The notes: generated from the sequence alone by a model not told the origin. DNA of 64,000 nucleotides from Fibrobacteraceae bacterium (GCA_017625775.1 JAGAKE010000012.1:29120-93119), one strand, 5' to 3'. Positions 4,434 through 26,557 are shown, counted from the first letter of the stretch. Numbers and translations are program-made.

Positions 4434-5795
4434 ATGCTGATACGTTTTAATGTCAAGAATTTCCTCTCTTTCGATTCAGAAGATCGTGCAACTCACGATA
4501 CTTCTAGCCAGGAATTTTCGATGATTCCCGGAAAAGTCCGTAGCAAAGAAGACCATATCCTCAAGACCGGCAAACAGAACCTTCTTAAGTTTGCCGCCAT
4601 TTACGGTGCTAACGCGGCAGGGAAATCCAACCTGATTAAGGCGATGGCGTTCTTCAAAAATTGCACCTTAAACGGAACCGCCCTACCCCAAGACGCCAAC
4701 CTGTATTGCAAGACCGATCCGAATAACAAAGACAAAACCAGTTATTTTGAAGCAGAATTCATCGTCAATGATGAAGTGTTTGCGTATGGTTTCGAAATTA
4801 TTTTAAGTACCGGATTATTTGTTTCCGAATGGCTCTGCAAGCTCACCCCCTCTAAAGAAGAATATCTTTTCAAGAAAGAGGACTCCCAGCATGGCTACGA
4901 ATTCGGCGGGCCACTCGCAAAAAACGAGATGCTCAAAGTTCTTGTTTCCAGTTTCTATGGAAGCAACGGACTCTTCTTGAATTTTATCAACCGAACCATG
5001 GCCGGCTTTTACAAGACCAACCCGCAAGCGGAAGTTTTACGAACCGCATTCAACTGGATAGCGAACAACCTAGATATCAACTACCCGGCCAACCCACTTT
5101 CGACCTCTTCATTCCTTGCAAACGAAGAGGCTCTTTGTCAAGCTTCGAAACTGCTGAAAGCGTTCGGCACTGGAATCGAAGATGTCAAGTCCGTTCAGGT
5201 TCCCCTGGAAAAAGTCGCCCCGTTCTTTCCGCCACTCTGGCTTCAAAACGTAGCCAAGCAAATGGAAATGAGCAATACCCCCAAGAACGATATTTTCATC
5301 AGGGATCGAAACGAAATCTTCGTAGTGAAAATGGAACGCGGGAAAAAGGACAAGGCGTATTCCATCCAGTTCAAGCATAACTTCCAGAATGCAACCTTGT
5401 TCAAGATGGCCGAAGAATCCGACGGCACCGCGCGTCTTTTCGACCTTCTCGAAATATTGCTTTCCAAATCCAACAAGACTTACGTTATCGATGAACTGGA
5501 CCGTTGCCTGCATCCATGCCTTTCGTATCAGTTCGTGAAGGCGTTCTTTGAATATTCCAAGAACCGCAACGTCCAATTAATTGTAACCACCCATGAATCA
5601 CGTCTGATGGACTTCGATTTGTTGCGTCGTGACGAAATTTGGTTTGTGGACAAGGACCAAAACGGCGCAAGCAACATCTACTCGCTGGAAGAATACAACG
5701 AACGCTTCGATAAGAAAATAGACAAAGCCTACCTCGAAGGCCGCTATGGCGGTGTACCGCTGTTTACCTCGATTTTCCCAATTGAGGAGGCTTGA
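4434..5795 (+). CDS. AAA_15/AAA_21 (ABC/OLD-type) ATPase, AbiLi/RloA-like
   Basis: Walker A GANAAGKS, Walker B YVIDELDRCLHP and the downstream motif VTTHES. Its stop overlaps the next start (ATGA). Confidence 0.85.
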   Translation: MLIRFNVKNFLSFDSEDRATHDTSSQEFSMIPGKVRSKEDHILKTGKQNLLKFAAIYGANAAGKSNLIKAMAFFKNCTLNGTALPQDANLYCKTDPNNKDKTSYFEAEFIVNDEVFAYGFEIILSTGLFVSEWLCKLTPSKEEYLFKKEDSQHGYEFGGPLAKNEMLKVLVSSFYGSNGLFLNFINRTMAGFYKTNPQAEVLRTAFNWIANNLDINYPANPLSTSSFLANEEALCQASKLLKAFGTGIEDVKSVQVPLEKVAPFFPPLWLQNVAKQMEMSNTPKNDIFIRDRNEIFVVKMERGKKDKAYSIQFKHNFQNATLFKMAEESDGTARLFDLLEILLSKSNKTYVIDELDRCLHPCLSYQFVKAFFEYSKNRNVQLIVTTHESRLMDFDLLRRDEIWFVDKDQNGASNIYSLEEYNERFDKKIDKAYLEGRYGGVPLFTSIFPIEEA

Positions 5796-6745
5796 TGAGA
5801 GAGTCTAGAACCTTCGGAAAAAGAAAAAGGGAAGAACTTCCTCAACGGGAAGTCAACATCAAGTATATCCTTTTGACAGAAGGGACCGAGACGGAGCCTC
5901 AGTATTTTGAAGCCGTAGAAGAAAACAAGAAACAACTGGGTATTCCTCCCATTATCAAGATTCTCCCCCTGATGCGGAGTTATGGGGAAAATGGGTGGAG
6001 CAATCCGAAAAAGATTCTTGACAGGCTACTGTTGAACCTTGAGGAATCAACATCAAACAAAATCTCGTATAGCACCTTGCTAAACGCTATGATCGACTGC
6101 CTGTATTATAGCGAATACCTGAGCAAGCACAAGGAACTGATTCCCGAAATCAGCAACTTGCTAGATAGGATTTATCGCAATGTCCTAAAAGTTACTCCAG
6201 ATGATTTCGTCGAAGACAAAGAAGCGACCGTAACGAAGGTGACGGAATTTCTCGCCAAGGAAAAGCCGCGAATTTGCGAACTCATCATCAAGAATATCGG
6301 TGATGCCCTAAACGAGCAGTCCATCCCGTACGCTCCAGACATAGACAAGATTTGCCTGGTCGTTGACCGCGACCCCATGAGCTTTACCAGTTCTCAATTC
6401 GATTATGTAAAGAACACCTGCGCAACAAACAATGTTCAATTCTACATCAGCAATCCCGGATTTGAACTGTGGCTCTTGATGCACAGCAGCAATTTCGCTA
6501 CGATGAAAGATGACCTAGCGGCAAAATTTTTAACTATGACCCCGCCGGAATTCTTGGACCACATCGAAAGTCTTTTGAAACAGGAATTCGATGGATACAA
6601 CAAGTCTAAACTGAAAACGCAACCGTTTATGCAGGCTATCGACACGGCTATTGCAAACGAAAAAATGTTCACGGAGAGCGTTGACGCGTTAAAGAATGAT
6701 ATGGGATCGAATATTGGGCTGTTAATTCAGGAGATGAGAAGGTAA
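5792..6745 (+). CDS. RloB-like (TOPRIM-like) protein, AbiLii-like
   Basis: N-terminal ILLTEGTETEPQYF and C-terminal YISNPGFELWLLMH match the RloB family signature as I recall it. It has a 4-nt overlap with the upstream ATPase gene. Confidence 0.8.
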   Translation: MMRESRTFGKRKREELPQREVNIKYILLTEGTETEPQYFEAVEENKKQLGIPPIIKILPLMRSYGENGWSNPKKILDRLLLNLEESTSNKISYSTLLNAMIDCLYYSEYLSKHKELIPEISNLLDRIYRNVLKVTPDDFVEDKEATVTKVTEFLAKEKPRICELIIKNIGDALNEQSIPYAPDIDKICLVVDRDPMSFTSSQFDYVKNTCATNNVQFYISNPGFELWLLMHSSNFATMKDDLAAKFLTMTPPEFLDHIESLLKQEFDGYNKSKLKTQPFMQAIDTAIANEKMFTESVDALKNDMGSNIGLLIQEMRR

Positions 6746-6753
6746 AACATACA

Positions 6754-7410
6754 ATGATTCTCGATAACGACCCACTCGGCATACACAGCATCGATGTCAA
6801 ATACGAAGGTTCGACTAGAGCGACCCAGTATTGCATTGACGATTTTATGAAACGTCTTTATGGCAGCCGCAAAATTACAGACATGACCATTTTAACTTGC
6901 CAAAATTATCACGCCTTAATGCTATGCTTTGAAAATCGGGACCTCGTTGTCTTTATCAAAAGCGGACTGACTTCGGGTTATTCTGGCGAAGGCCCCAAGG
7001 GAACATCGCTTATTATTCGCCTTGCCGAAGAAGCAGGAATTATCATTAAGGAATTGAAGGCAGCACCTTCGCTATTCAAGAGAATCAATTCTTCTCGTGC
7101 TACAGTTAAAGATGTGGAATTCATCAAAAAGAACAGCACGGAAAATTTTGATTACGACCGTCTTTGCCTACCGAATGTCAATAACGAATATGTCAAACGA
7201 GCGAAGGAATCCTTCAAAAAGGACAAGGATATCATTTTCGTTAGGGCCGAAGACGAAAAAACGAAGGATGCCGTTGAGATTGACAGGGCTAAGGCACTAA
7301 AGATGCTGCAAGAAATTCACGATGCTGTGATCAAATCAAAAGATTCAGCGCTCTTGTCCGACTTTGGGAACGCCTCTTCAATTCTGTCATTCATCAAAAG
7401 CTTTTTTTAA
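6754..7410 (+). CDS. hypothetical protein, third gene of the AbiL-like cluster
   Basis: 218-aa ORF starting 9 nt after the RloB stop. A GAGAAGG RBS lies inside the RloB 3' end. No motif recognised. Confidence 0.6.
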   Translation: MILDNDPLGIHSIDVKYEGSTRATQYCIDDFMKRLYGSRKITDMTILTCQNYHALMLCFENRDLVVFIKSGLTSGYSGEGPKGTSLIIRLAEEAGIIIKELKAAPSLFKRINSSRATVKDVEFIKKNSTENFDYDRLCLPNVNNEYVKRAKESFKKDKDIIFVRAEDEKTKDAVEIDRAKALKMLQEIHDAVIKSKDSALLSDFGNASSILSFIKSFF

Positions 7411-7445
7411 ATATTTGCGTGTTAGCAGGTTTCCGCTTATTTTGA

Positions 7446-8816
7446 CTAAATTTCTTCGTCATCCTCTTCATTATTAAATTGATGTCTAGAAATAATTTCA
7501 TCGATAAAATTCATATCATTTTCATCAATTTCAAGGCAAATTGGATTTTTATTCTCTATCGCCCAATTCATTTTATCTCTAGCCTTATTCACCGTTCTTG
7601 AAATATCTATAGAGTCATTAACGCAAGAAAACAACCGTTCTACATCCTTCTTTTGTTCAATCATGTATGGTAAAGAAGATACTTCATATCCTAAAAAATA
7701 TCGGCTAAGTCTATCATTTTCCGAATCCCGAATATTCTCTACCTTTTCAGACCATTTTTTTAAATGGTCTTCTTTTACAGGTTTCACGTGTCCATTGGAA
7801 ATAAGATCATTCTGAATCTTTGTTGCTGCATTAACAACTTCTTTTAATTTCTCATTGCTCGTAATCTTTTTAAATGCTTTGTAGAATTCATCAAAATTTT
7901 TCTCACCTTTACCCTCGTCTTCTGGATTAATTTTAGCAATCAAATATTCCCAAGCGCTTTTGGGGCACCATCGCCCCCAAAATGTTTCTATAGTATAACT
8001 AGTAATAAATGACTTTGGTACAAGTTTTTCGGGCAAAGTTTCTAATTCAAGTACTTTTCTCATAAGCTTTTTCCCTAGCGAAAATGAATTCTCAGCTAAG
8101 TCAAACGGAACACCTTGCTTTATTTTTTTTACGGCTGTTTCAGTCAAATTATATGATATCGCTAAATCTTGCTTTAAATTGCCCGCCCATTTATGTAGGA
8201 ACACTCCCGATTCTAGCAAGGCATAATGAAATAAATATTCTTCCTGCTCAAAAATCTGTTTGTCAATTTTAGTTTTGCCAAATGTATTTTTATGTTTTTC
8301 GAAAACCTCTTCAAATTCTTGAACAACCTTTTTCGAAAATGACAATTGTCCAATTTCAACATTTTCGCCTTCAAAACCTGGCCTAGTAAAATTTGACGAA
8401 GTAATTAGCGTAAATCCGGCAATAATTTCATTTGCTGCATTTTTTTGTAATACAGCATACCCTTTGCTATGTGTCAAGTTGGATGATGCGAGAAAAGCGT
8501 ATTCAAAATCTATTCCTAATCCTTTAAATTTCTTTTGTATAGATTTGATTTTTTTATCAACAAATACGGGGCCAATTCTATATACTTCAGAAAAATCAAA
8601 TAAGAACTTTATCTTTGATATCTTTATTTTTTTTGCTAGCTCATTATAAAAAGGCACTAAAATATCTAAATCCACATAGCATGTTAAGATCAATAATTCA
8701 TGATTATGCTTTTGCGGTTTCAACAGAAAATCACAAGAATCAAGCAAAGCGACTCGCGCCGAATTATAATGCGCACAACCCGCAGCATTTTGATTTAATA
8801 TGAAAATATTTTTCAT
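7446..8816 (-). CDS. PLD-like (single degenerate HKD) domain protein with long unknown C-terminal region
   Basis: LTHSKGYAVLQ...LITSSNFT (codons at about 8390-8471) resembles HxK(x4)D..GSxN, but lacks the Asp. Acidic tail EEDDEEI. Last gene of the four-gene operon. Confidence 0.65.
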   Translation of the reverse strand: MKNIFILNQNAAGCAHYNSARVALLDSCDFLLKPQKHNHELLILTCYVDLDILVPFYNELAKKIKISKIKFLFDFSEVYRIGPVFVDKKIKSIQKKFKGLGIDFEYAFLASSNLTHSKGYAVLQKNAANEIIAGFTLITSSNFTRPGFEGENVEIGQLSFSKKVVQEFEEVFEKHKNTFGKTKIDKQIFEQEEYLFHYALLESGVFLHKWAGNLKQDLAISYNLTETAVKKIKQGVPFDLAENSFSLGKKLMRKVLELETLPEKLVPKSFITSYTIETFWGRWCPKSAWEYLIAKINPEDEGKGEKNFDEFYKAFKKITSNEKLKEVVNAATKIQNDLISNGHVKPVKEDHLKKWSEKVENIRDSENDRLSRYFLGYEVSSLPYMIEQKKDVERLFSCVNDSIDISRTVNKARDKMNWAIENKNPICLEIDENDMNFIDEIISRHQFNNEEDDEEI

Positions 8817-8835
8817 TTGACCGATACCATGATAA

Positions 8836-9864
8836 TTATACGATTTGCTTAACAGCGTATACCAAATTCAGCAGATTCACACCCACAACTGGCTTATGCA
8901 AGCTCTCATCCATTTCATTAAACCCTCGGTCTATAAAATCCTTTCGCCATTTTTGCAGGCCATTATACCATGACGGACGGCAGCATGCATTTTGTGATTT
9001 TTGAAGACAAAAGAGGACAGCAATGTCCAAGAATCGTTTGTTTAGGTATTTTTTTAGACTTTCAAGAAATTTCTTAACATGGATATTAGTGTCGTCCGTA
9101 TAAGTCAAGGCCCAAAAACTTTTATTATTGGCATCAATACCTAATGTCATACCGATTAGGGGTGCAAGGCTTTTCATATCTTCATGAAACAATACCGTTT
9201 TCTTGTCGATGGTATGAGAAGGAACCCAGCCTCCAGTACACATCACAGGAGCCATTACATCAAAGCTAAAGACAATAGCCTTGACATCTTTATTTGCATT
9301 TTTCGTAGAAAACGCTTTCTCGCACACACTTATTTCTTTTTTCAAGTCGTTTAAGGCTATAACATCTCTTTCTTTCGTAGTTTCCACCATATCGTATAAA
9401 AGGTTTTTGTCAGCACCGTCACTAGAAAGAATTTTTTCAAGAAATTCAATGGATGCTTTTTTATGAAAATATTCATAGCTCATCGCCCTATAATGCAACT
9501 GAAGAATAACTTCGTCATTAAAAGAAGTTATAGGCTTGTCAATCAAATTAAATAACTGCGTATCATGACAATTGCAAAAGCCTTCGAATGTAGACGCTTT
9601 CTGAATTGTCCAAGGCTCAAATAACGTTTTTTGAGTACCTCCGCTTTCATCCATTAAATGAAAACATTTGGAAATGCTGTTGTTCCAAACACAGACTTTG
9701 TCATTTTCAGCAATACGTTTTAATTGTTCCGATCTTGCAATAGAATGAGATGTAATCGGCTCGCCCGAACAATGCGCAGCATCAAAATTATGCGCAATAC
9801 AAATCTGGTTCGCCTTAATTTTCTTATCTAAATCTTCAAGCTCTTTTCTTGTCATATTTATCAT
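8836..9864 (-). CDS. hypothetical Cys/His-rich protein
   Basis: The ORF is open from a TTG at 9885; the ATGs at 9864 or 9855 are more likely starts. It contains CIAHNFDAAHCSGEPITSHSIARS and FEGFCNCHDTQLF clusters. No family recognised. Confidence 0.65.
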   Translation of the reverse strand: MINMTRKELEDLDKKIKANQICIAHNFDAAHCSGEPITSHSIARSEQLKRIAENDKVCVWNNSISKCFHLMDESGGTQKTLFEPWTIQKASTFEGFCNCHDTQLFNLIDKPITSFNDEVILQLHYRAMSYEYFHKKASIEFLEKILSSDGADKNLLYDMVETTKERDVIALNDLKKEISVCEKAFSTKNANKDVKAIVFSFDVMAPVMCTGGWVPSHTIDKKTVLFHEDMKSLAPLIGMTLGIDANNKSFWALTYTDDTNIHVKKFLESLKKYLNKRFLDIAVLFCLQKSQNACCRPSWYNGLQKWRKDFIDRGFNEMDESLHKPVVGVNLLNLVYAVKQIV

Positions 9865-9900
9865 ATATGTTATAAGAAATGTCAATGACTATTTAACAAT

Positions 9901-10746
9901 CTACGCTCTTTCAATTTTCCACACGCCTATCCCTGTTCGGGAAGAATCACTAACATCTTTGGTACACCTAAAAAGTATTGTTTTTAAGCTTTTTATTTGT
10001 TGAAAGTATTTATCTATACTACCATATATATCATTATATTCTTTTGATAATTTATAGTGGCATCCTTTTTCATCTTTAAACGCATCAATCCTGGATTTTA
10101 TATCTGGATTATCAAACACTAAAATTTTTTCTGCTTTTTTATCATCCATAGCATTTTTTACTTCAACGCCGTTACCATCTTTCAAATCTTTTGTTGTATC
10201 ATTTTCAAATATAAACATTTCTTCATAGGGATTTATTTTTGTAGGAACTGTTTTGTTTGCCGGCGCTATAGAAGGTCCATCTAGATTTGGGTTAACGGGC
10301 TCCTTTCCAAGATTTTTAAAATTCCGAATAAACTTCGATTTTTCGCCAATCATCATAAAGTAGCATTCCATATTATCCGAAACAGTATTTAATCGGATCA
10401 AATCGTTAAACACTCGCTGTATTTCATCGGGATTTCCTGTATAATTGTCTCTGGCAAATTTAAATTCGAATACATAATCTTTTCCATTCACACGAAAATA
10501 CAGATCAAAATCCCTATCATAAAACGCATCTATTTTCTTTTCAAACTTTATATCACCTGTATATTGAGCAAGATAATCTGCTATAGGATACTTTATGGAT
10601 TTTTCCTCCAAAATTAATTCTCTATTCACGGCAACATGATAAGAAAACCAAGACACAGCAACATCAATCAAATCCTTGACATCAAATGGTTGGCCCGGCT
10701 TAGTAGGAGGATTACTTTTGTTTTCAGATTTAGGATCATCAGCCAT
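9901..10746 (-). CDS. PD-(D/E)xK-like nuclease-fold protein (putative)
   Basis: DRDFDLYFRVNGKDYVFEFKF gives a D-x12-E-x-K pattern (codons 10459-10506), preceded by an E-rich helix (ILEEKS). The ATG at 10746 overlaps the upstream stop (TAATG). Confidence 0.65.
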   Translation of the reverse strand: MADDPKSENKSNPPTKPGQPFDVKDLIDVAVSWFSYHVAVNRELILEEKSIKYPIADYLAQYTGDIKFEKKIDAFYDRDFDLYFRVNGKDYVFEFKFARDNYTGNPDEIQRVFNDLIRLNTVSDNMECYFMMIGEKSKFIRNFKNLGKEPVNPNLDGPSIAPANKTVPTKINPYEEMFIFENDTTKDLKDGNGVEVKNAMDDKKAEKILVFDNPDIKSRIDAFKDEKGCHYKLSKEYNDIYGSIDKYFQQIKSLKTILFRCTKDVSDSSRTGIGVWKIERA

Positions 10747-11237
10747 TATCTTACCCAAGCTATATCATTCAATCCAACAATCACAACACGAACATACGGA
10801 TTTTGTAGCGATGAATCAACAAATCCATTGTAAGAACGCCCATGAACTACATACATGACAGCATCATCCAAAACTTGCTTAGGATTTGGAGTCTGGGGAG
10901 GAATATAAAGAATATGCAATTCAGAAAACACTCCTGTAAAGGGATTATTCCATTGCTCCGCATAATGCCTCACAGCATTATTATTGGGTAGAGGATTATA
11001 GTGCAAAGTGTTTATTCCTCTAATAATAAGGCGAAGCCAAGGATCATCAAGCCATTCTTCCACAAATTCATAATATACAGCATCTTGAATTTGCGGCTGG
11101 TTAATTAGACCTTGAATAGCATTATTAATTGAAGGTGTTGGATTTTGAACATACGGGCTTTCAGAAAAAATTGCAAAGTCCACCATATGGCCAGGCTCCT
11201 GATTATATCCATGAAATCGTCTATAGAAAAATTGCAT
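10746..11237 (-). CDS. hypothetical protein (first gene of the four-gene operon)
   Basis: 163-aa ORF with a strong AAAGGAG RBS 6 nt upstream of the ATG. No motif recognised. Confidence 0.6.
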   Translation of the reverse strand: MQFFYRRFHGYNQEPGHMVDFAIFSESPYVQNPTPSINNAIQGLINQPQIQDAVYYEFVEEWLDDPWLRLIIRGINTLHYNPLPNNNAVRHYAEQWNNPFTGVFSELHILYIPPQTPNPKQVLDDAVMYVVHGRSYNGFVDSSLQNPYVRVVIVGLNDIAWVR

Positions 11238-11321
11238 ACTAGCTCCTTTATTTTACTTAACTCATTTTAATCTTGATTTTATCATTGCTAATAAAATCCA
11301 AAAGACAATCTAATTGATTTT

Positions 11322-12584
11322 TCATAATCCGTCCTTTTTCTTCCCCACCTCAACCTGGCCGTTCATGAGAAGCGGGAGGAGTTTGTCACGGAGGGTGGTT
11401 AGGCGAGAGATTTCTTTCACCTTGTTAAATTGAACATCAAAGATGGGAGCCACCTTTTCTTCAAAAGTGGCAATCAACTTTTTTGGCGGATAAAGAATTG
11501 CGAATCGACCCAATTCATCTTTTGAGACTTCTTTAAATGTGGTTCCGGTTCCCAGATTTTGGATTTGCGGAATATGCTGCTGAATCGTGTAATAAAGATA
11601 CTTAGAATCAGTCATATCGTTAGGAACCATATTTTTAAATCCCTGATTTGTGCACAAATCACATTGTGCTATAGAAAGAAGCCCTATCGGAGCTCTGCTT
11701 GACATTACAACCGTCCCTTTTGGAACCATTGTCGTGCTGCAAGAATCGTAGCCAGCTTGGGTTATGTTCCTTGCACCTTGATAAACGAATTTACAATTCT
11801 GGTCAGATAAATCTTTGGGCGTTATCCAAACAATTTCACCGCCGTAATTTTCTTCTTCAGTCGTAGACGGCGTTGAACCATTGAATATCTTGGTAATATC
11901 GCAGATTTGCTTTACTTCCCAGCCCACAGGGATTTCGCGTTTGAGGGTGGGGTTGTAGGTCATGGGGCCGCCGGTGGTTTTGTAGGGGCGGCCGTTTTTG
12001 TCGGGGAAATCGTATTGGACGAACCAGTAGTCGTATAGGCGTTTTGCCATTGCTTCGAGTTTTTGGTTCATCTTTTTGTTCAGGGCGATTTTGTCGTCTA
12101 ATGCTGAAAGTACGGAGGCGATTTTCTTTTGCTCTGATAATGGAGGGATGCACAACTCTAACGCTTTTATTCCATCTTGTGACAAATTATCTCTTGCTGA
12201 ACCTGTACTCAATCCAACAAGATAATTATACATCGTATCTAGTTTGTATTTTAAAAAGCGAGGCAACAAAATATCCTGATTTGGCATAATCGCGCAAATC
12301 GCCTGGTTTGTGCATGCTTCAAACTCAAGTAAAGACGCCTTACCTGCAGTTGCTCCATACATTGCCAACAAAACTGTTTGCGGAGGAAACAATTTGGCAC
12401 TTGAGTTGTCATACCCTTTTTGAGTGATAAAATTACTTGTAGTGCTAATAAAAGGATTATTTAATTCCCCGCTATTTATCCAAGGAATATTCCCATTTTC
12501 ATAATATTCTGCGACTGTAGATTTGGGAGTCCCTCCAGATCCCGTTTTCGCAATATCACCCAATTTGTATTTCGTCATTTCCAT
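11322..12584 (-). CDS. hsdS: Type I restriction-modification specificity subunit
   Basis: Two target-recognition halves are separated by a conserved IPPLSEQKKIASVLSALDDKI...LEAMAKRLYDYWFVQ spacer, and the C-terminus has RDKLLPLLMNGQV. The ATG at 12584 has a GGAAAGG RBS. Confidence 0.9.
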   Translation of the reverse strand: MEMTKYKLGDIAKTGSGGTPKSTVAEYYENGNIPWINSGELNNPFISTTSNFITQKGYDNSSAKLFPPQTVLLAMYGATAGKASLLEFEACTNQAICAIMPNQDILLPRFLKYKLDTMYNYLVGLSTGSARDNLSQDGIKALELCIPPLSEQKKIASVLSALDDKIALNKKMNQKLEAMAKRLYDYWFVQYDFPDKNGRPYKTTGGPMTYNPTLKREIPVGWEVKQICDITKIFNGSTPSTTEEENYGGEIVWITPKDLSDQNCKFVYQGARNITQAGYDSCSTTMVPKGTVVMSSRAPIGLLSIAQCDLCTNQGFKNMVPNDMTDSKYLYYTIQQHIPQIQNLGTGTTFKEVSKDELGRFAILYPPKKLIATFEEKVAPIFDVQFNKVKEISRLTTLRDKLLPLLMNGQVEVGKKKDGL

Positions 12585-12588
12585 ATTC

Positions 12589-12639
12589 AAACCTTTCCTA
12601 GATCCTTCGACTCCGTTGCACTCCGCTCAGGATGACACC
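12589..12639. repeat. 51-bp direct repeat, copy 1 (hsdS leader)
   Basis: aaacctttcctagatccttcgactccgttGcactccgctcaggatgacacc is identical to 13086-13136 except for one base. Confidence 0.9.
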
Positions 12640-12644
12640 CCGAG

Positions 12645-12926
12645 TTACCTTCTTCCTGCCTTTTTCCACAGATATCTCGCCCTTGCGATTTCCATCTTGC
12701 TATAACCATATAAAGAGATTGGTGCGTCGGTCACACCCATTGCATCTAACTCAGCTTGAGCATCTTCACGTTCCCTTTTTGCCATTTCTTTTTTTGCAAG
12801 TTCCTCTTTTTCGGCTTCATATTTCCGCTGCTGTTTTAAAATGACAAAAGGAACTATAATTGCACCGATTGCAGCAACAGCCGCAATCAAAGAAATCAAG
12901 CCAGAATAGTTATTCAGAATTTCCAT
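12645..12926 (-). CDS. small membrane-anchored coiled-coil protein (hypothetical)
   Basis: 93 aa with an N-terminal hydrophobic helix LISLIAAVAAIGAIIVPFVIL followed by a charged KE-rich segment. It sits between the two 51-bp repeats. Confidence 0.45.
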   Translation of the reverse strand: MEILNNYSGLISLIAAVAAIGAIIVPFVILKQQRKYEAEKEELAKKEMAKREREDAQAELDAMGVTDAPISLYGYSKMEIARARYLWKKAGRR

Positions 12927-13085
12927 CTACATTTCCATGAACGCCGTTAGGCGTGAACAAATCCGTGTGGCATTATCGGGGCGTTGCGGGGTGTCCCCGC
13001 TAGAAGGGGTAGCGAGCAACGGAGTGCGAGCGAGGGGGAGACTTCCCCCTTTGTATATCCTTTCAATTTCATAACCATCTTTACT

Positions 13086-13136
13086 AAACCTTTCCTAGAT
13101 CCTTCGACTCCGTTACACTCCGCTCAGGATGACACC
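13086..13136. repeat. 51-bp direct repeat, copy 2
   Basis: Same 51-mer as 12589-12639 with a G>A difference. On the minus strand it is followed by a 43-aa stub ORF (12947-13078). Confidence 0.9.
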
Positions 13137-13149
13137 ATCGTCATAGGAG

Positions 13150-13170
13150 ATTCCCGGTCAAGCCGGGAAT
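13150..13170. repeat. REP-like hairpin containing the hsdM stop codon
   Basis: attcccgg / tcaag / ccgggaat: an 8-bp stem and a 5-nt loop. The hsdM TGA (13158-13160) lies in the loop. Confidence 0.7.
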
Positions 13171-14810
13171 GACAATGATGCAAGCTGTTTCTGTATTTCC
13201 TTCTCAAGTTTGTGGCTTTCGGCGAACATGGCGGCGAGTTCTTCGGTGTCGGCCTTCATTTGTGAATTAAATTCTTCTTCCGTAATATCCACATAATCAA
13301 TTTTGATGTCAAAATACTGGCCAGCGCTCAAACTGTAGCCTTTTTCTTTGACTTCGTTGTAGGTTACGACTACACTGAAGTCTTCGACGGCTTTGGCCTT
13401 GCGGAATGTGCTCACGATTTTTTCTATTTCGTTGTCTTCTAAGCGGACTTTCTTGAGGCCGTTCGCATCCTTGTATTCCTTACCAAGTTTGCTTGCATCA
13501 ATAAGGGTGACTTTGTCGCTGTCGGTCTTTTTCTTGCTCTTGTCGAAGAAGAGTACGCTTACGTTGGTGCCAGTATTTGCAAATACGTTGCTTGGCATGC
13601 TCACTACGCCATAGACGATATGTTCGTCAACGATGCGTTCCAAAATTTTGCGCTCGATGCCGGATTTCGCGGTGATGAACCCGGTGGGGATAACGATGGC
13701 GCCCTTGCCGCCTGCCTTGATGCTGTTTACCACGTGCTGGATAAAGCAGGTGTAGATGGCCATGCTTTCTTTTTTCTTGTTTGGAATTTTTGGGACGCCT
13801 GCCCAGAAGCGGGCATTCCATTTCTTCTCGATGTCGTCGCGGGTGTCGCTGAAGTCCATCTTGAAGGGCGGATTGCTCACAACATAATCGAACTGTTTGA
13901 GGCTCTTGCCGTCGTCGCTCTTGTGGTAGGGTTCCAGGAGGGTATCGCCCTGCACGGCGTGATCGAGGCTCGAAACGAGTCCGTTCAAGAGCAGGTTCAG
14001 CTTGAGCATTTTGTTACTGCGCTGCGAGATGTCTTGCGCAAAGATGGTGCAGCGGTCTTCGCCAATCTGGTGGCTGAGCGCCATGAGCAAGGTGCCGGTG
14101 CCTGCACTGGGGTCGTAGCATTCTACGTTGTGCAAGTCGGCGTTGTCGCCCACCAAGAGGCGGGCCATGATTTTCGCGATGGCCTTGGGGGTGTAATATT
14201 CGGCGTACTTGCCGCCGCCCGCGGTGTTGTAGTCCTTGAGCAGGTATTCGAAGATGTCCGAGAAAAAGTCGTAGTGTTCGGCGAAGGCGTCTTCGAAGCT
14301 GAAGTTCACGAGCTTATCGACAAGGGCGCGGGCGAAGTTTGCACGCTGGGCGTCGTCGGTCACGAAGATGGTGAGCTTTTCGAAGATGGGAATTTTCGTC
14401 TCTTGCGCGGTCTTGGTGTAGAATACGTCCAGGTTGTCCTTCGCGATGGCGACCATGGTCTCGTCAAAAATCACGTCGAAATCGCCCTTGGCCTGCTTGT
14501 TCCAGAGGTTTGCAATCAGGTAGTCGGGCTTGAACACCGGGACTTCGGGCGGCAAGAACAGGCTCACCTTTTCGCGGTCGGCTTTGGAGAGTTTCGCGTA
14601 TTCCTCTTCCCACTTTTCGGACTTCTTGAGGGCCTTCAGGCAAGGGTCTTTGATTTTCTTGAGTTCATAGCCGAACTTGTCGGCCATAAACTTGTACAAA
14701 AACACCTGAGTGATAATCTTGTATTCGTTGCCGTCATTGCCCATGCCGTACGTTTGGCAAGTGGCCTTGAGAGAGTCGATCAGAGCTATGGTTTTGTCTT
14801 TGATGTTCAT
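13158..14810 (-). CDS. hsdM: Type I R-M N6-adenine DNA methyltransferase subunit
   Basis: Catalytic NPPF (VVSNPPFKMDF) and SAM-binding-like DPSAGTGTLL. The N-terminal region is HsdM_N-like. Confidence 0.95.
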   Translation of the reverse strand: MNIKDKTIALIDSLKATCQTYGMGNDGNEYKIITQVFLYKFMADKFGYELKKIKDPCLKALKKSEKWEEEYAKLSKADREKVSLFLPPEVPVFKPDYLIANLWNKQAKGDFDVIFDETMVAIAKDNLDVFYTKTAQETKIPIFEKLTIFVTDDAQRANFARALVDKLVNFSFEDAFAEHYDFFSDIFEYLLKDYNTAGGGKYAEYYTPKAIAKIMARLLVGDNADLHNVECYDPSAGTGTLLMALSHQIGEDRCTIFAQDISQRSNKMLKLNLLLNGLVSSLDHAVQGDTLLEPYHKSDDGKSLKQFDYVVSNPPFKMDFSDTRDDIEKKWNARFWAGVPKIPNKKKESMAIYTCFIQHVVNSIKAGGKGAIVIPTGFITAKSGIERKILERIVDEHIVYGVVSMPSNVFANTGTNVSVLFFDKSKKKTDSDKVTLIDASKLGKEYKDANGLKKVRLEDNEIEKIVSTFRKAKAVEDFSVVVTYNEVKEKGYSLSAGQYFDIKIDYVDITEEEFNSQMKADTEELAAMFAESHKLEKEIQKQLASLSFPA

Positions 14811-15836
14811 TTAATTTCCATTCCATTTTACCAGCCAAGAACCTGTCTTGTTGCTGCCAATACGTTCGATGATTTGTCTTTCTTTTAACGCTGCCAAAAT
14901 ACGCTGGATCTGGCGAGCACTCATTTCCAGTTTTTCGGCCATGGATGCCGCCGAGAGCGAAGAATCTCCTCGCAACATATCCAAAACCTGTCTTTCTATA
15001 TCGTTTACTACGACATTTATTACGACATTTTTAGGCTTTATTACGACATCATTAGCCATAGACCGCTTAAATTCGTCTATTTCCTGCCGTAAATTAGCCG
15101 CATGCTCTCTGAACAGGAAGTCACAAATAATGCAGACATCGTCATTTTCGCGAGACTTCTGTAACGCCATAATGTATTCAGCCTTATTGGTCGCAATAAT
15201 TTTTGAAGGCACTAGTCCAAATTCCATCTGCAAATAGTTCATAATCAGGCGAGACATTCTACCGTTGCCATCGACCCACGGGTGAATCGACACCAAGTAA
15301 TAGTGAGCGCAAAAGCTCAACCGATAAAGGGCAGCAATATCCGACTTATCAACTTGCGAGCGTTCCTTGTTCAGCCAGTCGCAAAAATCCAAAAGCCGCG
15401 CTGGGACCTTTTGAAAGGCAAGGTAAGATGCCCCGCCCACCCCAGCCGTCACATTCACAAGACGGAGTTCCCCTTTTGATGAATCAAATTCGCCAAACAC
15501 CGTATTATATTTTGAACCCGTACTATGCATGACGATTGAAGACAGATGCTTCAAAAAATCAATGTCTATTTGAGGATGTTGCGGAGCTACCTTAATACAT
15601 TCGTCGTAGGCGGCCTTAAGATCTAGGTTCATAAGTTGTTCTACCATAGAACGACCCTTAGCAGAGATTCCCTCATCAAACAATAGTCTATTTTCGATTT
15701 CGGTGACAGTAGAACCTTCTATTGCAGTAGAATGGGTAATCAAGGAATACAGATAGAACTTGTTATAATCGATTTGTTCATCTATACGAAGCGCCTTATA
15801 TTCGCCTAGAACATCAAGAAGTTTTTGTTCGTACAT
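14811..15836 (-). CDS. Fic family protein with C-terminal winged-HTH
   Basis: Fic motif HPWVDGNGRMSR and upstream inhibitory-type motif STAIEG. The C-terminus is MarR-like (LSAASMAEKLEMSARQIQRILAALKE). An AGGAG RBS directly follows the hsdR stop, and the Fic stop abuts the hsdM ATG. Confidence 0.9.
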   Translation of the reverse strand: MYEQKLLDVLGEYKALRIDEQIDYNKFYLYSLITHSTAIEGSTVTEIENRLLFDEGISAKGRSMVEQLMNLDLKAAYDECIKVAPQHPQIDIDFLKHLSSIVMHSTGSKYNTVFGEFDSSKGELRLVNVTAGVGGASYLAFQKVPARLLDFCDWLNKERSQVDKSDIAALYRLSFCAHYYLVSIHPWVDGNGRMSRLIMNYLQMEFGLVPSKIIATNKAEYIMALQKSRENDDVCIICDFLFREHAANLRQEIDEFKRSMANDVVIKPKNVVINVVVNDIERQVLDMLRGDSSLSAASMAEKLEMSARQIQRILAALKERQIIERIGSNKTGSWLVKWNGN

Positions 15837-15847
15837 GCCGTTCTCCT

Positions 15848-18800
15848 TTAATTTCCGTAATAGGCGTTATATTGATTTATGTACTGCTTGGCAATGCGCT
15901 GCTGGATAAACAGGTAATCAGGCATTTCGGGCTTGATTTGTGGGAAGTGCGCAAGTCCATCTGCAATTTCTTTCATCACGGTCTTGCCGAAGTAGGCATC
16001 CTGTTTGAGGATATCGTTGCGATCAAAAACCTTCGCGTCAATCGTTCCCTTGATAGTCAAGAGAGCCTGCACGATTTCTTCGTCGAACTTCGAGATAATC
16101 GGTGCCTGGTGCTTGGGTTCGCGGGCCTTGTTCTCCTCGCGAATACGCTTGTGAACATAGGCGAATTTCGTGTCGCCATTGTACTTGCGCAAAAGGGCTT
16201 CGTTAGCCTTGCGGAGTTCTTCAAGGCGTTTCAGGATGTCGTTCATCGCCTGGTTCTGCTCGTTATAAACGGCAAGATTTTCCGGGGTAAAGCCATGCTT
16301 GTCAAAGATGCGCTTGAACTCCTGTTCCAATTCAACAAATACAGGGTCTTCGTGGTCGAAGTTATCCAAGAATCCGCGGAGTGCGCGCTTGTACTTTTCA
16401 CGCAGTTCCGTGCCGTTGTCGATGATTTTCAGTTCCTCCGTGCCAATGCAGCTAAAGTTGAACTCGATGTTCATCATGGCTTCGTTCACGGCAAACTGCG
16501 TCGCTTCGCTGTTGGTCCACGCCTCTTTCTGGTTAATCATCGCAATGCGGTGGTTCACTTCCGAAAGCATGAGCGGCAACTTTTCGATGTTCAGCTTTTC
16601 AAAGTCCTTTTTAAGGGCATCGTCACCGAAAGTGCGCACAAGGTTCATGGCATCTTTCGCGAGTTCCAAGGCCTTGCGCAACTCAATTAAAACCTTCTTA
16701 TCTTCAAGGCTAGAAATCTCCGTAGAGAAAACTTCCGCGTTATCGGTAGTATAACTGAACAAAGCCTGACGTGCCACCTTCATGTGATTAATAAGGGCGT
16801 CCTTATCTTCCATGACTTGATTGTACATGTCGGGCAAGTTATCGTCCGGGTCAGTATCGGCATCGTTGTAGCGGTTCAGTTCCTGCAAATACGCGGCATT
16901 GGTTTCGTCGAAATTCTTCTTGATGTCGGCAAAGTCAATCAAGAACCCGCGTTTCATATTCTTGTACGGGCGATTCACGCGTGTAATTGCCTGCAACAAA
17001 TTGTGGTCCTTGATTTTCCGACCGAAATATAATCGCTTAAGACGAGGCGCATCAAAGCCAGTCAAGAGCATGTTGAAAACAATCAACACATCAATCGTGT
17101 AGTTCTTCTTGAAATTTTTGACAATCTGCTTGCGAGTTTCTTTGTCATCACTATCGAAAAGAATCAGACCTGCCTTCAAATTGATTTTCTGGATGCGATT
17201 TTCGTTGAGTTCGTCCTGAATCTCATTGAAGAACTTATACAGGTTTCGTGCCTGTTCCGAAGATTCGCAAATAATCATACCACCCAAGTCGTTGTCACCC
17301 TGCATGGCCCGGAACCTGACCAAATCATTGATGATGTAGCGGAGCAACGCCTTAACGTATGTGGGGTGCCGAATAATCATGTCCTTCGAGACAGAACCCT
17401 TCTCCACCAGTTTCTGCACGCTTTCGTAAGCATCGTTCAGTTTTTTGCGGTAACTGGTTTCGATATCTTCGCGGATAATCTTTAGCGTGTAGCCGTCTTG
17501 AATGGAACGGTCGTAATAATACGTGTGGAAGTAATCGCCAAAGACCTTGCAACTCGCCTTTTCACTCCCGATGAGCGGTGTGCCGGTAAGCGCAATCTTG
17601 ATGGCGTTCTTGTCGGCATTGAAAAGGTTCGAAAGGAAACATCCGCCCGGTTTGTAGCCGCGATGCGCTTCGTCCATAATGAACACGCGTTGCAAATTCG
17701 TGGCGTAATTTGGGATTTCCACTTTCTCGGTGTCATTTTCAAACTTCTGGATGTTCACCACGGTAATTTCATCGACACCGGCGTTGCCCTGCAAGGCCTG
17801 CTGCGTGCGGAACTGCTCCATGAGTTCCGTGCGGGAATTAGCCGTTGTCACCTTGAGGCCGCGATTGCTCAATTCTTCGGTCGCCTGCTCCAGCAAATCC
17901 AGACGGTCCACAATAAAGTAGAATTTCGCGACCTTGTTCTGCTTGGCGTACTCGTCCTTGAGGACTTTGCTCAAGTGGAAAGAAAGCGCCGTCTTGCCTG
18001 AACCCTGCGTATGCCACACAATGCCGGACTTTGCACCCGCTGCCAGTTTTTCACGGATAATCATGGCCGCAAAAAATTGCTGGTAACGCATGATGTGCTT
18101 TTCGTGGCGGCTCTCGATTTGGCCATCCTTCTCTTTTTCGACATGCAAGTAAGCGATGCCGTACTTGAGCAAAAAGAGCAAACGCTCCGGGCTCACCATC
18201 GAAGTAAGCACGCGATTCGTGGGCGTATTGATGTCTAGATTCGTCTTGTATTCCGGGTTCTCTTTCAATACCGGAACATTGAAATCCATCAGGACTCTCT
18301 TTTCGAGATCCGCAGGAATCGGCAAATAAGGATAATTGGCGTGGAACGGCGCGATTGCCGCACGCTTGGGGTTTTCTTCCCTGAAGCAGTTGAAACGCGC
18401 TTCGTTTTTCGCAGCCGTGCAATAGAACACGCCTTCAATCGGGACAACGCCGCCCTTGGCATCGTACTCCATGTTGTTGGAGAAAATCATCAACTGCGTG
18501 ATGTTGATAAAACGGCGGAACTTTTTCTTCGGGAACCGCTCATCGTTCATCCGCTTGCTTTCGGCCACCATGCCGCCTACATTGTTCGGCTTCTTGACCT
18601 CGATAAACACGAGCGGAAGCCCGTTGATGAACAACGTAATGTCGGGGCGAAAACTTTCATCGCCGTTCTTGCAACTAAATTCCGCCGTGCAATGGTATGT
18701 GTTATTTTCCAGATGTTCGAAATCAATCAAGCGAAGGGTCGAACTGCTGGTAAGGCGCTTATAAAACTGCTGTCCCAAATCATCGTCATCCAGTTCCTTC

Positions 18801-19066
18801 TGGATGTCCGAAAGCACGCTCTGTGCAGAAACTGTCGCAACTGGATTCAATTTTTTGAACTGCTTTGCAAAGATATCCACAAGAATGTTTGTTTCTGGAT
18901 CAAACGCAATGTTCGCCAATGCTGCGTTGGAAGCATCTTTCAATGTTCCTGATCCGGAAATCGCACAACACTCTGAAATTTTACCTAAATACGTATAACC
19001 GATACGAGCCAAATGCTGAATCGCAGTCAGTTGAACGCGCGTCGCTTCCGTAAAAAGATTAGACAT
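15848..19066 (-). CDS. hsdR: Type I restriction enzyme R subunit (helicase-nuclease)
   Basis: Walker A HTQGSGKT, DEAH-type box FIMDEAHRG, and an N-terminal nuclease-like FIEVKKP. The ORF is open to 19147, but MSNLFTEA at 19066 is the likely start. Confidence 0.95.
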   Translation of the reverse strand: MSNLFTEATRVQLTAIQHLARIGYTYLGKISECCAISGSGTLKDASNAALANIAFDPETNILVDIFAKQFKKLNPVATVSAQSVLSDIQKELDDDDLGQQFYKRLTSSSTLRLIDFEHLENNTYHCTAEFSCKNGDESFRPDITLFINGLPLVFIEVKKPNNVGGMVAESKRMNDERFPKKKFRRFINITQLMIFSNNMEYDAKGGVVPIEGVFYCTAAKNEARFNCFREENPKRAAIAPFHANYPYLPIPADLEKRVLMDFNVPVLKENPEYKTNLDINTPTNRVLTSMVSPERLLFLLKYGIAYLHVEKEKDGQIESRHEKHIMRYQQFFAAMIIREKLAAGAKSGIVWHTQGSGKTALSFHLSKVLKDEYAKQNKVAKFYFIVDRLDLLEQATEELSNRGLKVTTANSRTELMEQFRTQQALQGNAGVDEITVVNIQKFENDTEKVEIPNYATNLQRVFIMDEAHRGYKPGGCFLSNLFNADKNAIKIALTGTPLIGSEKASCKVFGDYFHTYYYDRSIQDGYTLKIIREDIETSYRKKLNDAYESVQKLVEKGSVSKDMIIRHPTYVKALLRYIINDLVRFRAMQGDNDLGGMIICESSEQARNLYKFFNEIQDELNENRIQKINLKAGLILFDSDDKETRKQIVKNFKKNYTIDVLIVFNMLLTGFDAPRLKRLYFGRKIKDHNLLQAITRVNRPYKNMKRGFLIDFADIKKNFDETNAAYLQELNRYNDADTDPDDNLPDMYNQVMEDKDALINHMKVARQALFSYTTDNAEVFSTEISSLEDKKVLIELRKALELAKDAMNLVRTFGDDALKKDFEKLNIEKLPLMLSEVNHRIAMINQKEAWTNSEATQFAVNEAMMNIEFNFSCIGTEELKIIDNGTELREKYKRALRGFLDNFDHEDPVFVELEQEFKRIFDKHGFTPENLAVYNEQNQAMNDILKRLEELRKANEALLRKYNGDTKFAYVHKRIREENKAREPKHQAPIISKFDEEIVQALLTIKGTIDAKVFDRNDILKQDAYFGKTVMKEIADGLAHFPQIKPEMPDYLFIQQRIAKQYINQYNAYYGN

Positions 19067-19402
19067 AAAAATTTTACCTTCCAAATTGGCGTTCACAAGG
19101 TATGTTATCGCCGTCGCCATCCATTTGATTAGCCTCAGCAAAACCAAAGCCTTTGGCTTTATTCCAAACAGAAATTTTTACAACATTTATTATAGGCATA
19201 GCAATCTCTAACGAGAATATAAATTTTTAATCTGTCACTAAGACAATTTTCTAACCAATTAACACTTTTTAAGATATTCTCAAAAGGGGAATTCTCAACC
19301 TTGACAAATACTGCACAAAAGTATAATTTATAGAAAAATATTTAACAAAATATCTGCGTTCAATCTATTAAACAATTTGCATGTACGCAGAAAGGAGCGA
19401 AA

Positions 19403-23858: not shown

Positions 23859-24494
23859 TCACCACAGCGAGTAATTTTCTTTCTCTGTACCTATCGTCGT
23901 TTTTGGTCCATGCCCACAAAAAACAGTCGTATTACTTGGTAACAAAAAAAGCTTATTTCGAATGGTGTTATCTAAAATTTCGTAACTACCGCCGGGCAAA
24001 TCCGTTCGCCCAACGCCTTGATAAAATAAAACATCCCCACTAAATAAAATTTCACTTTTCGAATCGTAAAAAGAAAGACTCCCTGGAGAATGCCCCGGCG
24101 ATTCAAGCACTTTTAATTCAGTATTTCCAAAAGAAATAATGTCATTTTCTTTCAAAAAACTTTCTGGCAAATTAAAATTCCCTGAGTACGGCAAGCGAAA
24201 CATTCTCGCTTGTTCTGCAAGATTTTCACCCAAAAATAAATCAGGCCCACCCACTTTTGCTTTTAAATTCCATGCCTTTTCAACAAAAGAATTTCCGCAG
24301 CAATGATCTAAGTGCAAATGCGTATTCACAAGTGCCACAGGTTTTAAATTTTCTCGTTCTACAAACAAACAAGCTTCTTGAAATTCCGTTTCATCAAAAA
24401 ATCCAGAATCAATAAAAACGGCTTCACCTGTTTCGTCATAAAGCAAATAAGTGTTTACCTGAAAGGGATTACAAACAAAAATTTTAATTTTCAT
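23859..24494 (-). CDS. MBL-fold metallo-hydrolase (glyoxalase II-like)
   Basis: HLHLDHCCG (HxHxDH) motif. The likely start is MKIKIF at 24494; the ORF is open to 24551. Confidence 0.85.
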   Translation of the reverse strand: MKIKIFVCNPFQVNTYLLYDETGEAVFIDSGFFDETEFQEACLFVERENLKPVALVNTHLHLDHCCGNSFVEKAWNLKAKVGGPDLFLGENLAEQARMFRLPYSGNFNLPESFLKENDIISFGNTELKVLESPGHSPGSLSFYDSKSEILFSGDVLFYQGVGRTDLPGGSYEILDNTIRNKLFLLPSNTTVFCGHGPKTTIGTEKENYSLW

Positions 24495-24797
24495 TTTTTC
24501 AAAATAATAAATTTCAGAATTCCTAGTGTAGCAGAGTAAGCATTTTGCCAAATTACCGACTACCCTTACCCATCAAGGTCATTTCTTTTCCTCGAAACCT
24601 TCAAATTTTTATTTCTTTTCAACATATCTAAAAACAATGTATTTTCTACCGCACTATCAATTCTAAAACATTTCTATTTTTTTGCTATAATCAATGTTTT
24701 TGGACCGAAATCGGTAACGTTCGTTTTTGTGTAAGCCCTATTCCTGTTTTTCACCTTTAATAAAGCATTTGTAAGATAAAAGTAATGATTTTCGTTT

Positions 24798-26557
24798 TTA
24801 TACAATTTCACTAATTAAGGCGACTATTTTTTCATAATATGTCTTTGCCCATATTTTTCCTCTCTTGAAAATATCATCCTCAGCCCAAGAAGCCTTTTCT
24901 GAACTTTCATTAATAAAATTATGAACCATACTATATTTCGAATCATTATAATAAACTAATTTTTCTTCAAAACTGCTATTTGCTGGTATTCCAGAGTTAA
25001 TGCGTTGTTCTAACAATATTAAGTTGCCAATTAAACAAGTTTCCTCATCATTAGCGACTTCATCTTTTATATGTTCTATTGAAGAATCTGGCAACATTGT
25101 ATCAGAACCATCTAAAATGCATTGCCATTTGTTAATTGTATATTTTGTTAAAACGTTAGAGGGAATACTCTTTTTGCTATACTTTAATGTAGTGAAATTC
25201 TCTACAAATTCTTCCTCTGTTGGCAAAAGACCTATTAGCGATTGCTTTAATTCTTTTACAATATCTCTTATTTCATTATTGTTTTCTGCATGAAACATAT
25301 TGTATGCAAATGTATTCAATGGAGATTCTAGGCTAGAGGTTCTTTTTGAACATATTGCATTGTAAGCAAAATGAAAACAAGACAATCCTTTAATGATTTT
25401 TTTAAACATTTTATAAGTAAGGACTTTTTTTTCTAAATGCATATAAAGTAGCGATAAGAAAACTGGCCTTGTTTGAACAATAGAGAATACATTATTTATT
25501 GATGCTAATTCCTCAATTACAAAAGCATATTCTTTTTTGTTGCTAAAATCTTCTAAATTAGGTTTTAAGATAATAGCATATCTTTTTGATGCACCTTCTA
25601 TTTCCTTTAGAAAACTTAAGTAACTTTCTTCATTTTTAGGAACTTTTTTTTGAAAATCTGAGTATAACTTATTATCCTGTACTTTTCCATAATGCGAAAT
25701 CCAAAAATGTCTATAAAATGATGCAAATTCTACACGCAATGCACGACTACATAAACTATTTCTTATTTGTAGCCAAGTTTCCTTAGCGGTGTCTGCAGGA
25801 ACTTCGTTATCTAGTTTCTCAAATATAGCATTCTTAATTAAGTCGACACTTGCAAGTTCTTTTCCTTTAGCATTAAGTACTTCAAATATCATATTTGCAT
25901 ACTCGGTATCAGTTGTAGTAATACAAATAACAAAACTACGCAGTAATTGGTCCCTAATTACTTTTAATAATTCAACATACTCAAAATTACAACAATCGTC
26001 TTTTCGCAATCTTTTTAATCTTTTAATAAGTCCTGTTTTGGATAAATTATTTTTGAAAAATTTATTAGCCTTTAAAATCTTTTCTTCTTCAGTATTTTTA
26101 GGCTCTATTTTTTCTTCCACTAGTTTTTGAATAATAAATTGAAAAAACGGCTTAGGTGTTTCATTTTTTAATATAGCAAATGGGTCAGTATTCGCATCTT
26201 TACCAATTATATACTCCCATAATGCGTTTGATAGCCCTTCTTGTTTTTCTTTTGCAAAAAGTTTGGAAATAACAGATAAAAAGATTGTCATAGTTGTAAT
26301 TCTTTGTTGTCCGTCAACAACTTCAACTGATAACTCTTTTTGGTCATCCAAATTACCAACTAATAATAAACTACCCCAAAAATATTCGCTTGTGTCTAAT
26401 TTGGAATCATTGATGTGTATTCTTGATAAAATATCATCTAAAAACTCATTTAACTCTATTTTGTCTCAGGTGTATTCTCTTTGAAAACGAGGAATAACAA
26501 ATTGTTTTTTGCAACTAAATAATCCGCTTATTGATTTTTCCCTGACTTAAAATCCAT
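24798..26557 (-). pseudogene. GmrSD-like DUF262/DUF1524 Type IV restriction enzyme, disrupted
   Basis: An AGGAG RBS precedes the ATG at 26557. The frame is lost in an A5 run after 8 codons. The N-terminal motif FVIPRFQREYT is followed by TGA (26466-26468) where Trp is expected. The downstream 517-aa frame has DGQQRITT and a C-terminal EHI...GNLILLEQRIN. Confidence 0.8.

Follow-up and report, generated by a model that had tools for sequence, protein, structure and literature searches.

Several described systems come close to parts of the locus reported here. HKD nucleases of the NgoFVII/BfiI type (PF09565, PF13091) carry a single N-terminal HKD domain with H-x-K and S-x-N motifs, and single-HKD nucleases such as Nuc and BfiI dimerise to build one active site. 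Type II toxin-antitoxin pairs and similar abortive infection (Abi)-like pairs have a small acidic upstream gene that is translationally coupled to the next one, and many toxin-antitoxin-like modules of defence islands proved to be abortive-infection systems. Other Abi proteins (AbiJ, Abi_2, AbiH and putAbiC) are encoded by single genes. Bacteriophage exclusion (BREX) systems and loci akin to them are reported to take up HKD, HNH and PD-(D/E)xK nucleases into their operons as auxiliary or backup enzymes (PMC12839542). We compared with these systems a cluster of four co-oriented genes, A to D, located at positions 7446–11237 of a 64,000-nucleotide (nt) stretch of DNA from a Fibrobacteraceae bacterium (GCA_017625775.1 JAGAKE010000012.1:29120-93119), referred to as the window. 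The cluster had been proposed, from the sequence alone, to be the operon of one defence system. According to our analysis it probably consists of three separately inherited units, A with B, C, and D, stacked as candidate defence modules.

All four genes lie on the minus strand. Gene A (10746–11237, ATG start) encodes 163 amino acids (aa) and gene B (9901–10746) encodes 281 aa counted from its ATG; the stop codon of A and the start codon of B share 1 nt in a TAATG overlap. Gene C (8836–9864) follows after 36–45 nt and encodes 342 aa, or 339 aa if translation starts at 9855. The latter start is more likely since the C homologues open with MTRKEL, and gene callers also picked it in a related locus (L001). 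Gene D (7446–8816, 456 aa) begins 19 nt after C. A ribosome-binding site, AAAGGAG (11249–11243), stands 5 nt ahead of the ATG of A. Apart from the length of the third gene, the sequence-only reading had these genes, their junctions and the ribosome-binding site right. Each of the open reading frames (ORFs) has homologues in other assemblies (25–97% identity) and is therefore not a chance frame, and the window locus was found again on a 155-kilobase (kb) metagenome scaffold. B is 100% identical to an NCBI protein from a metagenome-assembled Fibrobacteraceae genome.

The four genes form the 3′ continuation of a Type I restriction-modification (R-M) gene string, beginning 84 nt past hsdS. This spacer (11238–11321, minus strand) includes a module junction at ≈11257. 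A terminator scan found no terminator-like site in the spacers between A, B, C and D or in the spacer between hsdS and A. The one promoter-like match in the latter (11291–11264) is at chance level, and the sigma-70 consensus used may differ from the promoters of Fibrobacter.

None of A to D belongs at threshold to any curated family or named system tested. The screen covered PADLOC-DB v2, Pfam, NCBIfam and PHROGs and used the four proteins as well as alignments of their families. Its outcome agrees with the sequence-only reading, which could not map the genes onto any named system. No PADLOC model of Gabija, Septu, Zorya, Lamassu, Mokosh, Druantia, Shedu or Kiwa matches A–D at E ≤ 0.01; these systems, such as Shedu with its DUF4263 PD-(D/E)xK protein SduA, are likewise nuclease-based and located in defence islands. 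The PDC candidates of PADLOC-DB v2 gave no match for A, B or C, and for D there are only weak matches to DrmC. Nuclease-centred modules are familiar from defence islands. The ≈72-aa domain of A, the C protein and the C-terminal domain of D are undescribed in the libraries searched. Literature searches retrieved no paper describing these families.

The distribution of the four families was determined in 50 loci (cited below by number, e.g., L001) by tblastn and by running profiles of the families against the ORFs of all six frames. A and B are the only two genes with a constant link. B is found directly 3′ of A in nine out of nine informative lineages (window/L039, L031, L015, L034, and L040–L044), which span 33–100% identity for A and 25–100% for B. 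The identities of A and B to the window are 83% and 73% in L031–33, 57% and 44% in L015–17, 54% and 47% in L034, and 33–39% and 25–32% in L040–L044, where the A–B junction is either a gap of 4–5 nt or an overlap.

Gene C follows A–B in four lineages only (window/L039, L031, L034, and L015). The distant A–B loci L041–L043, which have sequence downstream of B, lack it, and six contexts have C without A or B (L018–20, L021, L022–24, L025–27, L028–30, and L046–48). Gene D accompanies A–B–C only in window/L039 and L031/32, is absent from L015–17, L034 and L041–L043, and occurs alone in ten contexts, i.e., eight proteobacterial genomes (L007–L014), L035 and L049. No hidden remote copies of the missing genes were revealed by profile searches of the six-frame ORFs. 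Related loci hence separate A+B, C and D from each other, contrary to the claim of one four-gene system.

Comparison at the DNA level with blastn showed where the units begin and end. In L034 and L015 the homologous stretch takes in the 3′ end of B along with the spacer and C, and goes no further than the stop codon of C (8834–8843). In L031 it breaks at 11257, where GmrSD is inserted, and ends with the stop codon of D (7447). In both L031 and L032 the GmrSD gene is inserted exactly at the ≈11257 junction and a gene for a NERD-like membrane protein directly follows D, and both lack the block of AAA ATPase, AbiLi, AbiLii and 218-aa genes (≈2.7–7.4 kb) found in the window. The window also carries a remnant of the N-terminus of a NERD-like protein at 2404–2652 on the minus strand (72% identity over 111 aa), which is an indel scar. 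Identities are furthermore mosaic between modules, with A at 83% and B at 97% relative to L039, and B at 73% and D at 97% relative to L031.

Modular acquisition is shown by these indel junctions between the compared loci rather than by base composition. The sequence-only reading had argued for separate acquisition from a difference in G+C content between the cluster and the neighboring R-M genes. Its hand counts (20/60 and 37/60) are exact, but the contrast was overstated and the argument is weak. The four-gene block has a G+C content of 0.338 against a window mean of 0.395 (standard deviation 0.046, 2-kb windows), and as this is only ≈1.2 standard deviations low we rejected G+C as a sign of separate origin. 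The values of the individual genes A–D are similar and low (0.32–0.37), and the G+C-rich outliers are hsdM and hsdR (0.48–0.51). The lowest G+C content in the window, 0.29–0.31 at 24000–28000, lies below that of the four-gene block.

The A protein is a tandem duplication of the ≈72-aa domain, since profiles of its N-terminal and C-terminal halves match each other with a probability of 99.7% (E 1.2e-25). Each copy has the consensus NP..(L/M)D.AV...YN.F(V/I)E..LDNPW(V/I)RV(V/I)I.G(I/L)N. Only 37 representative clusters of relatives turned up when 1.84 billion representative proteins were scanned in full with HMMER. The family is mostly acidic (pI < 6.2 for 18 out of 20 members) and soluble, without membrane segments. 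No match to A was found in PADLOC, Pfam (0/20 family members), NCBIfam or PHROGs, and a profile search of PDB was empty. A small acidic upstream gene coupled by TAATG is what type II toxin-antitoxin and Abi-like pairs would look like, but in contrast to the former A has no recognizable DNA-binding antitoxin domain; Pfam scans detected no helix-turn-helix, ribbon-helix-helix or AbrB domain.

B is a probable PD-(D/E)xK nuclease. It has few relatives, and the distant ones were recovered from metagenome loci. An alignment of nine B-family sequences, reaching down to 26% identity, has invariant E48, E69, D81, E94, K96, E108, R111, and D115, so that the D..ExK signature noticed in the sequence-only reading holds throughout the family. 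These residues are part of a pattern (cDl.Fkl ... FEFKy) which we take to be the classical motif II/III of PD-(D/E)xK enzymes. In an AlphaFold2 (AF2) model of poor quality the secondary structure runs alpha-alpha-beta-beta-alpha-beta-alpha, an order that fits the PD-(D/E)xK fold; the predicted strands 82–86 and 89–97 carry D81 and E94/K96, and an acidic residue is present upstream. After the motif region come a variable linker and then a C-terminal domain that is conserved. The B of the window matched nothing in PADLOC, Pfam, NCBIfam or PHROGs, and B belongs to none of the curated PD-(D/E)xK families at threshold. Three of the nine members match PF08011 (PDDEXK_9) weakly, at best with a sub-threshold E of 0.009, and a PDB profile search with B gave no relative. 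Like the auxiliary PD-(D/E)xK effectors of BREX loci (PMC12839542), A–B is found within or at the end of R-M, BREX and DISARM-like operons (DISARM, defence island system associated with restriction-modification).

Homologs of C fall into 29 clusters (47–94% identity) and come from Fibrobacter wherever the organism could be assigned. The family alignment has the invariant residues C22, C32, S39-H40-S41, H100-D101, C181, C209, and C294-C295, and this set of Cys and His residues suggests one or two metal sites. C matched nothing in PADLOC, Pfam, NCBIfam or PHROGs. As a stand-alone protein of ≈340 aa that moves between islands rich in R-M and Abi genes and is sometimes pseudogenized, C behaves like the single-gene Abi proteins AbiJ, Abi_2, AbiH and putAbiC, but it lacks sequence or fold similarity to any Abi family, and its Cys/His set suggests metal binding. 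To our knowledge, metal binding is not a feature of those families. A frameshifted C was observed in two lineages (L031 8069–9087, L032 4211–5229, and L033 1925–2676; L028 8001–9022, L029, and L030). As each split occurs in three independent assemblies, it probably reflects real pseudogenization and not assembly error. In the first of these lineages (L031–33) A, B, and D are intact.

By its sequence D is a divergent nuclease with a single HKD domain, and its C-terminal domain is particular to the family. Its N-terminus contains one HKD/PLD domain of the NgoFVII type with the signature H116-x-K118 ... S140-x-N142, which the sequence-only reading had recognized. All four of these residues are invariant in 30 D-family sequences, as is Q124, whereas the Asp position of the HKD motif (H-x-K-x4-D ... 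G-S-x-N) is not conserved. The C-terminal domain (≈260 aa) has an invariant GRWCP motif (G281–P285). The family has more than 80 homolog clusters, mostly proteobacterial proteins of ≈425 aa. The D of the window matches PLDc_2 with an E of 1.1e-5 and 25.7 bits, which is under the cut-off of 27. Of 30 relatives, 23 have a PLDc_2 match (best 4.9e-6) and 19 a RE_NgoFVII match (best 2.4e-5) at E ≤ 0.01, all of them weak. A tblastn search of GenBank plasmids with D gave zero matches.

The NgoFVII/BfiI-type nucleases are the closest to D, and there are differences. Besides its weak scores and the unconserved Asp position of HKD, D has no PDB sequence relative (an empty profile search), its GRWCP domain has no sequence features recognizable as B3-like, and there is no adjacent cognate methyltransferase. 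For this last reason D is not a classical Type II enzyme, and we rejected this assignment. The nearest methyltransferase is the Type I hsdM, ≈4.3 kb away, and none flanks the homologs in L007, L009, L010, L035 and L049. The closest named defence protein is the PLD-type DrmC of DISARM, of which PADLOC models match residues 133–174 of D (E 7e-5). D is, however, twice as long as DrmC and only the motif region of ≈40 residues aligns. DrmC was rejected as well, as the score of 16.5 bits compares with an NCBIfam cut-off of 133, and neither DrmA nor DrmB was found among the ten proteins scanned (window 4434–15836).

The closest D relative outside the Fibrobacter loci (56% identity) is found in L035 (341–2954). 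It overlaps the 3′ end of a 410-aa TIR_2 gene and precedes a gene with a RAMA domain. The TIR_2 gene and the D relative may represent a different two-gene pairing for the D family.

Homologs of every one of the four genes are located near known defence genes. Wherever upstream sequence could be seen, A–B immediately follows a DNA-targeting system encoded on its own strand; the contigs of L040, L043, and L044 begin at A. The upstream gene is hsdS in the window (84 nt), GmrSD, which in turn comes after hsdS, in L031 and L034, BrxL in L015–17 (11 nt), where the BREX system looks complete, and DrmMI in L041 and L042 (13–14 nt; PADLOC E 1e-194 and 1e-199, respectively). C is found after a DUF2971 gene and beside AbiJ and Type I R-M (L018–20), near Mrr, Abi_2 and a PLDc_2 protein as well as a Type I R-M with AbiJ (L021), within an Abi_2/DUF2971 island (L022–24), after putAbiC and beside a Type III-like R-M (L025–27), in its frameshifted form beside AbiH and Type I R-M (L028–30), and beside DUF1016/YhcG and a KAP NTPase (L046–48). 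Homologs of D are found behind WYL/WCX regulators and beside Type I R-M, and others near the TIR_2 protein (L035) or an integrase (L049). The L049 homolog adjoins transposase fragments and a RelE pair in addition to the integrase.

The DrmMI-type methyltransferase (L041 88–3696; L042 9–5986) is preceded in L042 by a DrmD/DpdE-like SNF2 helicase, and the 6 kb that follow DrmMI in L041/L042 contain no DrmA, DrmB or DrmC. What follows is A–B, small genes of unknown function, an HNH protein and the candidate PDC-S56. L041 and L042 may have a non-canonical DISARM-like or BREX-related arrangement.

A-like domains are also found in viruses. Single-copy A-domain ORFs were identified in three IMG/VR contigs (L036 5977–6360; L037/L038 ≈5926–6195), with E values of 2e-17 to 1e-13 when computed against the ORFs of the fetched loci only. 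A further single-domain copy is located at 5164–5454 of GenBank LR756502.1, a 642-kb uncultured phage. None of these ORFs has a B-like gene nearby. The viral ORFs sit amid small early-type genes, and the one in L037 is near an HNH homing endonuclease, a DprA-like gene, and a DNA methyltransferase. A tblastn search with A against GenBank phages and plasmids gave zero matches. The phage A-like proteins would fit a counter-measure, without proving one.

From the motifs and gene neighbors we infer nuclease activity, a defence function and a possible mechanism for the three units. B would be the nuclease effector and A its obligate, pseudo-dimeric acidic partner. A might keep B inactive until infection in the manner of an antitoxin, or might serve as a sensor or specificity subunit, and translational coupling of A and B would hold the two proteins at a fixed ratio. 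Placed behind R-M, BREX or DISARM-like genes, A–B could act as a second line of defence, perhaps sharing their transcript, and the A-like proteins of phages might be decoys. C would be a stand-alone Abi-type enzyme or sensor, probably metal-dependent, that acts like a single-gene defence gene. D would work as a homodimer with one HKD active site that cuts DNA, with the target recognized by the GRWCP C-terminal domain.

The full proposal is that A–B is a new two-gene anti-phage guard or backup nuclease module, built on the ≈72-aa repeat domain and located 3′ of modification-based systems (Type I R-M, BREX and DrmD/DrmMI), that phages, including huge ones, carry single-domain A copies for counter-defence, and that C defends as the product of one gene and has a novel metal-binding fold. 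We offer it tentatively and consider it unlikely to hold as a whole. The reading as three candidate defence modules is the more probable one, and a number of results weigh against it. The AF2 model of B has a confidence (predicted local distance difference test, pLDDT) of 46, a low value due to an alignment of only seven sequences, and its Foldseek search gave nothing significant (best E 0.026; the PD-(D/E)xK folds listed, bunyavirus endonucleases and 2okf, are all non-significant). For C only one out of five AF2 models is confident (pLDDT 82), this model has no match in PDB or BFVD (best Foldseek E 0.19 and 0.046), and C has no sequence relative in PDB. The defence role of A–D is inferred from gene neighbors only. 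At ≈91% nucleotide identity (L031 compared to the window) A–B–C–D moves as one block between different flanks, and a lineage-specific functional link is therefore possible, though not a conserved one. The sample is small and consists mostly of rumen or gut metagenomes, and the word-index homolog search may have missed distant relatives of B and C.

Three other explanations have to be weighed against the three-module reading. On the one-system view of the sequence-only reading, A–D would be subunits or steps of one machine encoded by a single operon. Co-oriented genes with an overlap, gaps of 19–45 nt and no terminator-like site in between would suit such an operon, as would the shared low G+C content (0.32–0.37) and the unchanged A–B–C–D order in L039 and L031/32, where the flanks of the block differ and its edges, at 11257 and 7447, are sharp. 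The loci that lack D (L015–17, L034, and L041–L043) or C (L041–L043) point the other way, as do the six contexts with C alone and the ten with D alone, for which profile searches show no remote copies, the frameshifted C next to intact genes in L031–33, and the mosaic identities between modules. Gene distribution has already largely refuted the one-system view, which we regard as very unlikely. Alternatively, A–B, with or without C and D, could be auxiliary or backup effectors of the upstream system without autonomy, firing for example when a phage anti-restriction protein blocks R-M, BREX or DrmD/DrmMI. Such effectors have been documented in BREX and BREX-related loci (PMC12839542), in each locus with upstream sequence A–B comes right after a system of this kind and shares its strand, the gaps of 11–14 nt after BrxL and DrmMI suggest co-transcription, and no terminator-like site separates hsdS from A. 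Yet the upstream partner varies (hsdS, GmrSD, BrxL, and DrmMI), which makes a specific protein–protein partnership unlikely, the sample includes no more than three kinds of upstream system (three contigs, L040, L043, and L044, begin at A), and genes of defence islands are often packed densely on one strand without being functionally coupled. We find this explanation doubtful.

The cluster could also have no role in defence at all. A–B would then be an addiction module of the plain toxin-antitoxin type, and C and D would be selfish or housekeeping cargo that gathers in a recombination hot-spot. A–B is indeed laid out like a type II toxin-antitoxin pair, with the small acidic gene overlapping a nuclease-like gene downstream, the D homolog of L049 has the integrase, transposase and RelE neighbors named above, and C is a pseudogene in two lineages. 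Known defence genes nevertheless dominate all sampled A–B neighborhoods and nearly all of those of C, and the toxin-antitoxin and abortive-infection readings overlap, so we give a non-defence role little credence.

The genes around the cluster were assigned with PADLOC and Pfam, which bore out the AbiL-like and Type I R-M flanks recognized from the sequence. The R-M genes (11322–19147) are all on the minus strand, with hsdR at 15848–19147, a Fic/SoFic-like gene at 14811–15836, hsdM at 13158–14810, a 93-aa ORF at 12645–12926, and hsdS, the last gene before A, at 11322–12590. The Fic/SoFic-like gene has a C-terminal winged helix and is embedded between hsdM and hsdR; the same arrangement is present in an unrelated Fibrobacter-type Type I locus (L018 10398–11375; L019 5890–6867). 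The 93-aa ORF between hsdM and hsdS is also called as a gene in L001–L003 and has an 89-aa counterpart in L031 but no family match, and it contains a hairpin resembling an intrinsic terminator (12737–12721). A 422-aa antisense ORF (13620–14888, plus strand) overlaps the intact hsdM (550 aa). In the public record of L001 the antisense ORF is called and hsdM is reduced to a 146-aa fragment, so the broken-looking hsdM of L001 is an annotation artefact and the gene is not broken.

On the other side of the cluster, AbiLi (4434–5795, PADLOC E 6.5e-79), AbiLii/RloB (5792–6745, AbiLii in PADLOC with E 3.6e-16 and RloB in Pfam) and a 218-aa gene (6754–7410) are on the plus strand and thus convergent with D. 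The 218-aa gene begins 8 nt past the stop codon of AbiLii (RloB) and is kept with the AbiL pair in L001–L006 and L039 (91% identity in L039). It has no significant match in Pfam, PADLOC or NCBIfam and only a weak one in PHROGs (phrog_19231, a family of unknown function, E 2e-4). This gene may be a third member of the AbiL module here. No RNA genes were found by tRNA and Rfam scans of the window.

The reach of these findings is limited, as families A, B and C have few members, so far almost exclusively from rumen or gut metagenomes (Fibrobacter-type genomes). The cluster illustrates that tight co-oriented packing in a defence island is not evidence for a single system, as the gene-by-gene distribution divides it. 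If experiments confirm these genes, three families absent from every library searched would join the catalog of anti-phage genes. A–B would then be a further nuclease module attached to R-M, BREX or DISARM-like operons, where such modules are at present discussed as a possible backup against the anti-restriction proteins of phages, and the A domain in phage contigs would provide a testable pair of defence and counter-defence.

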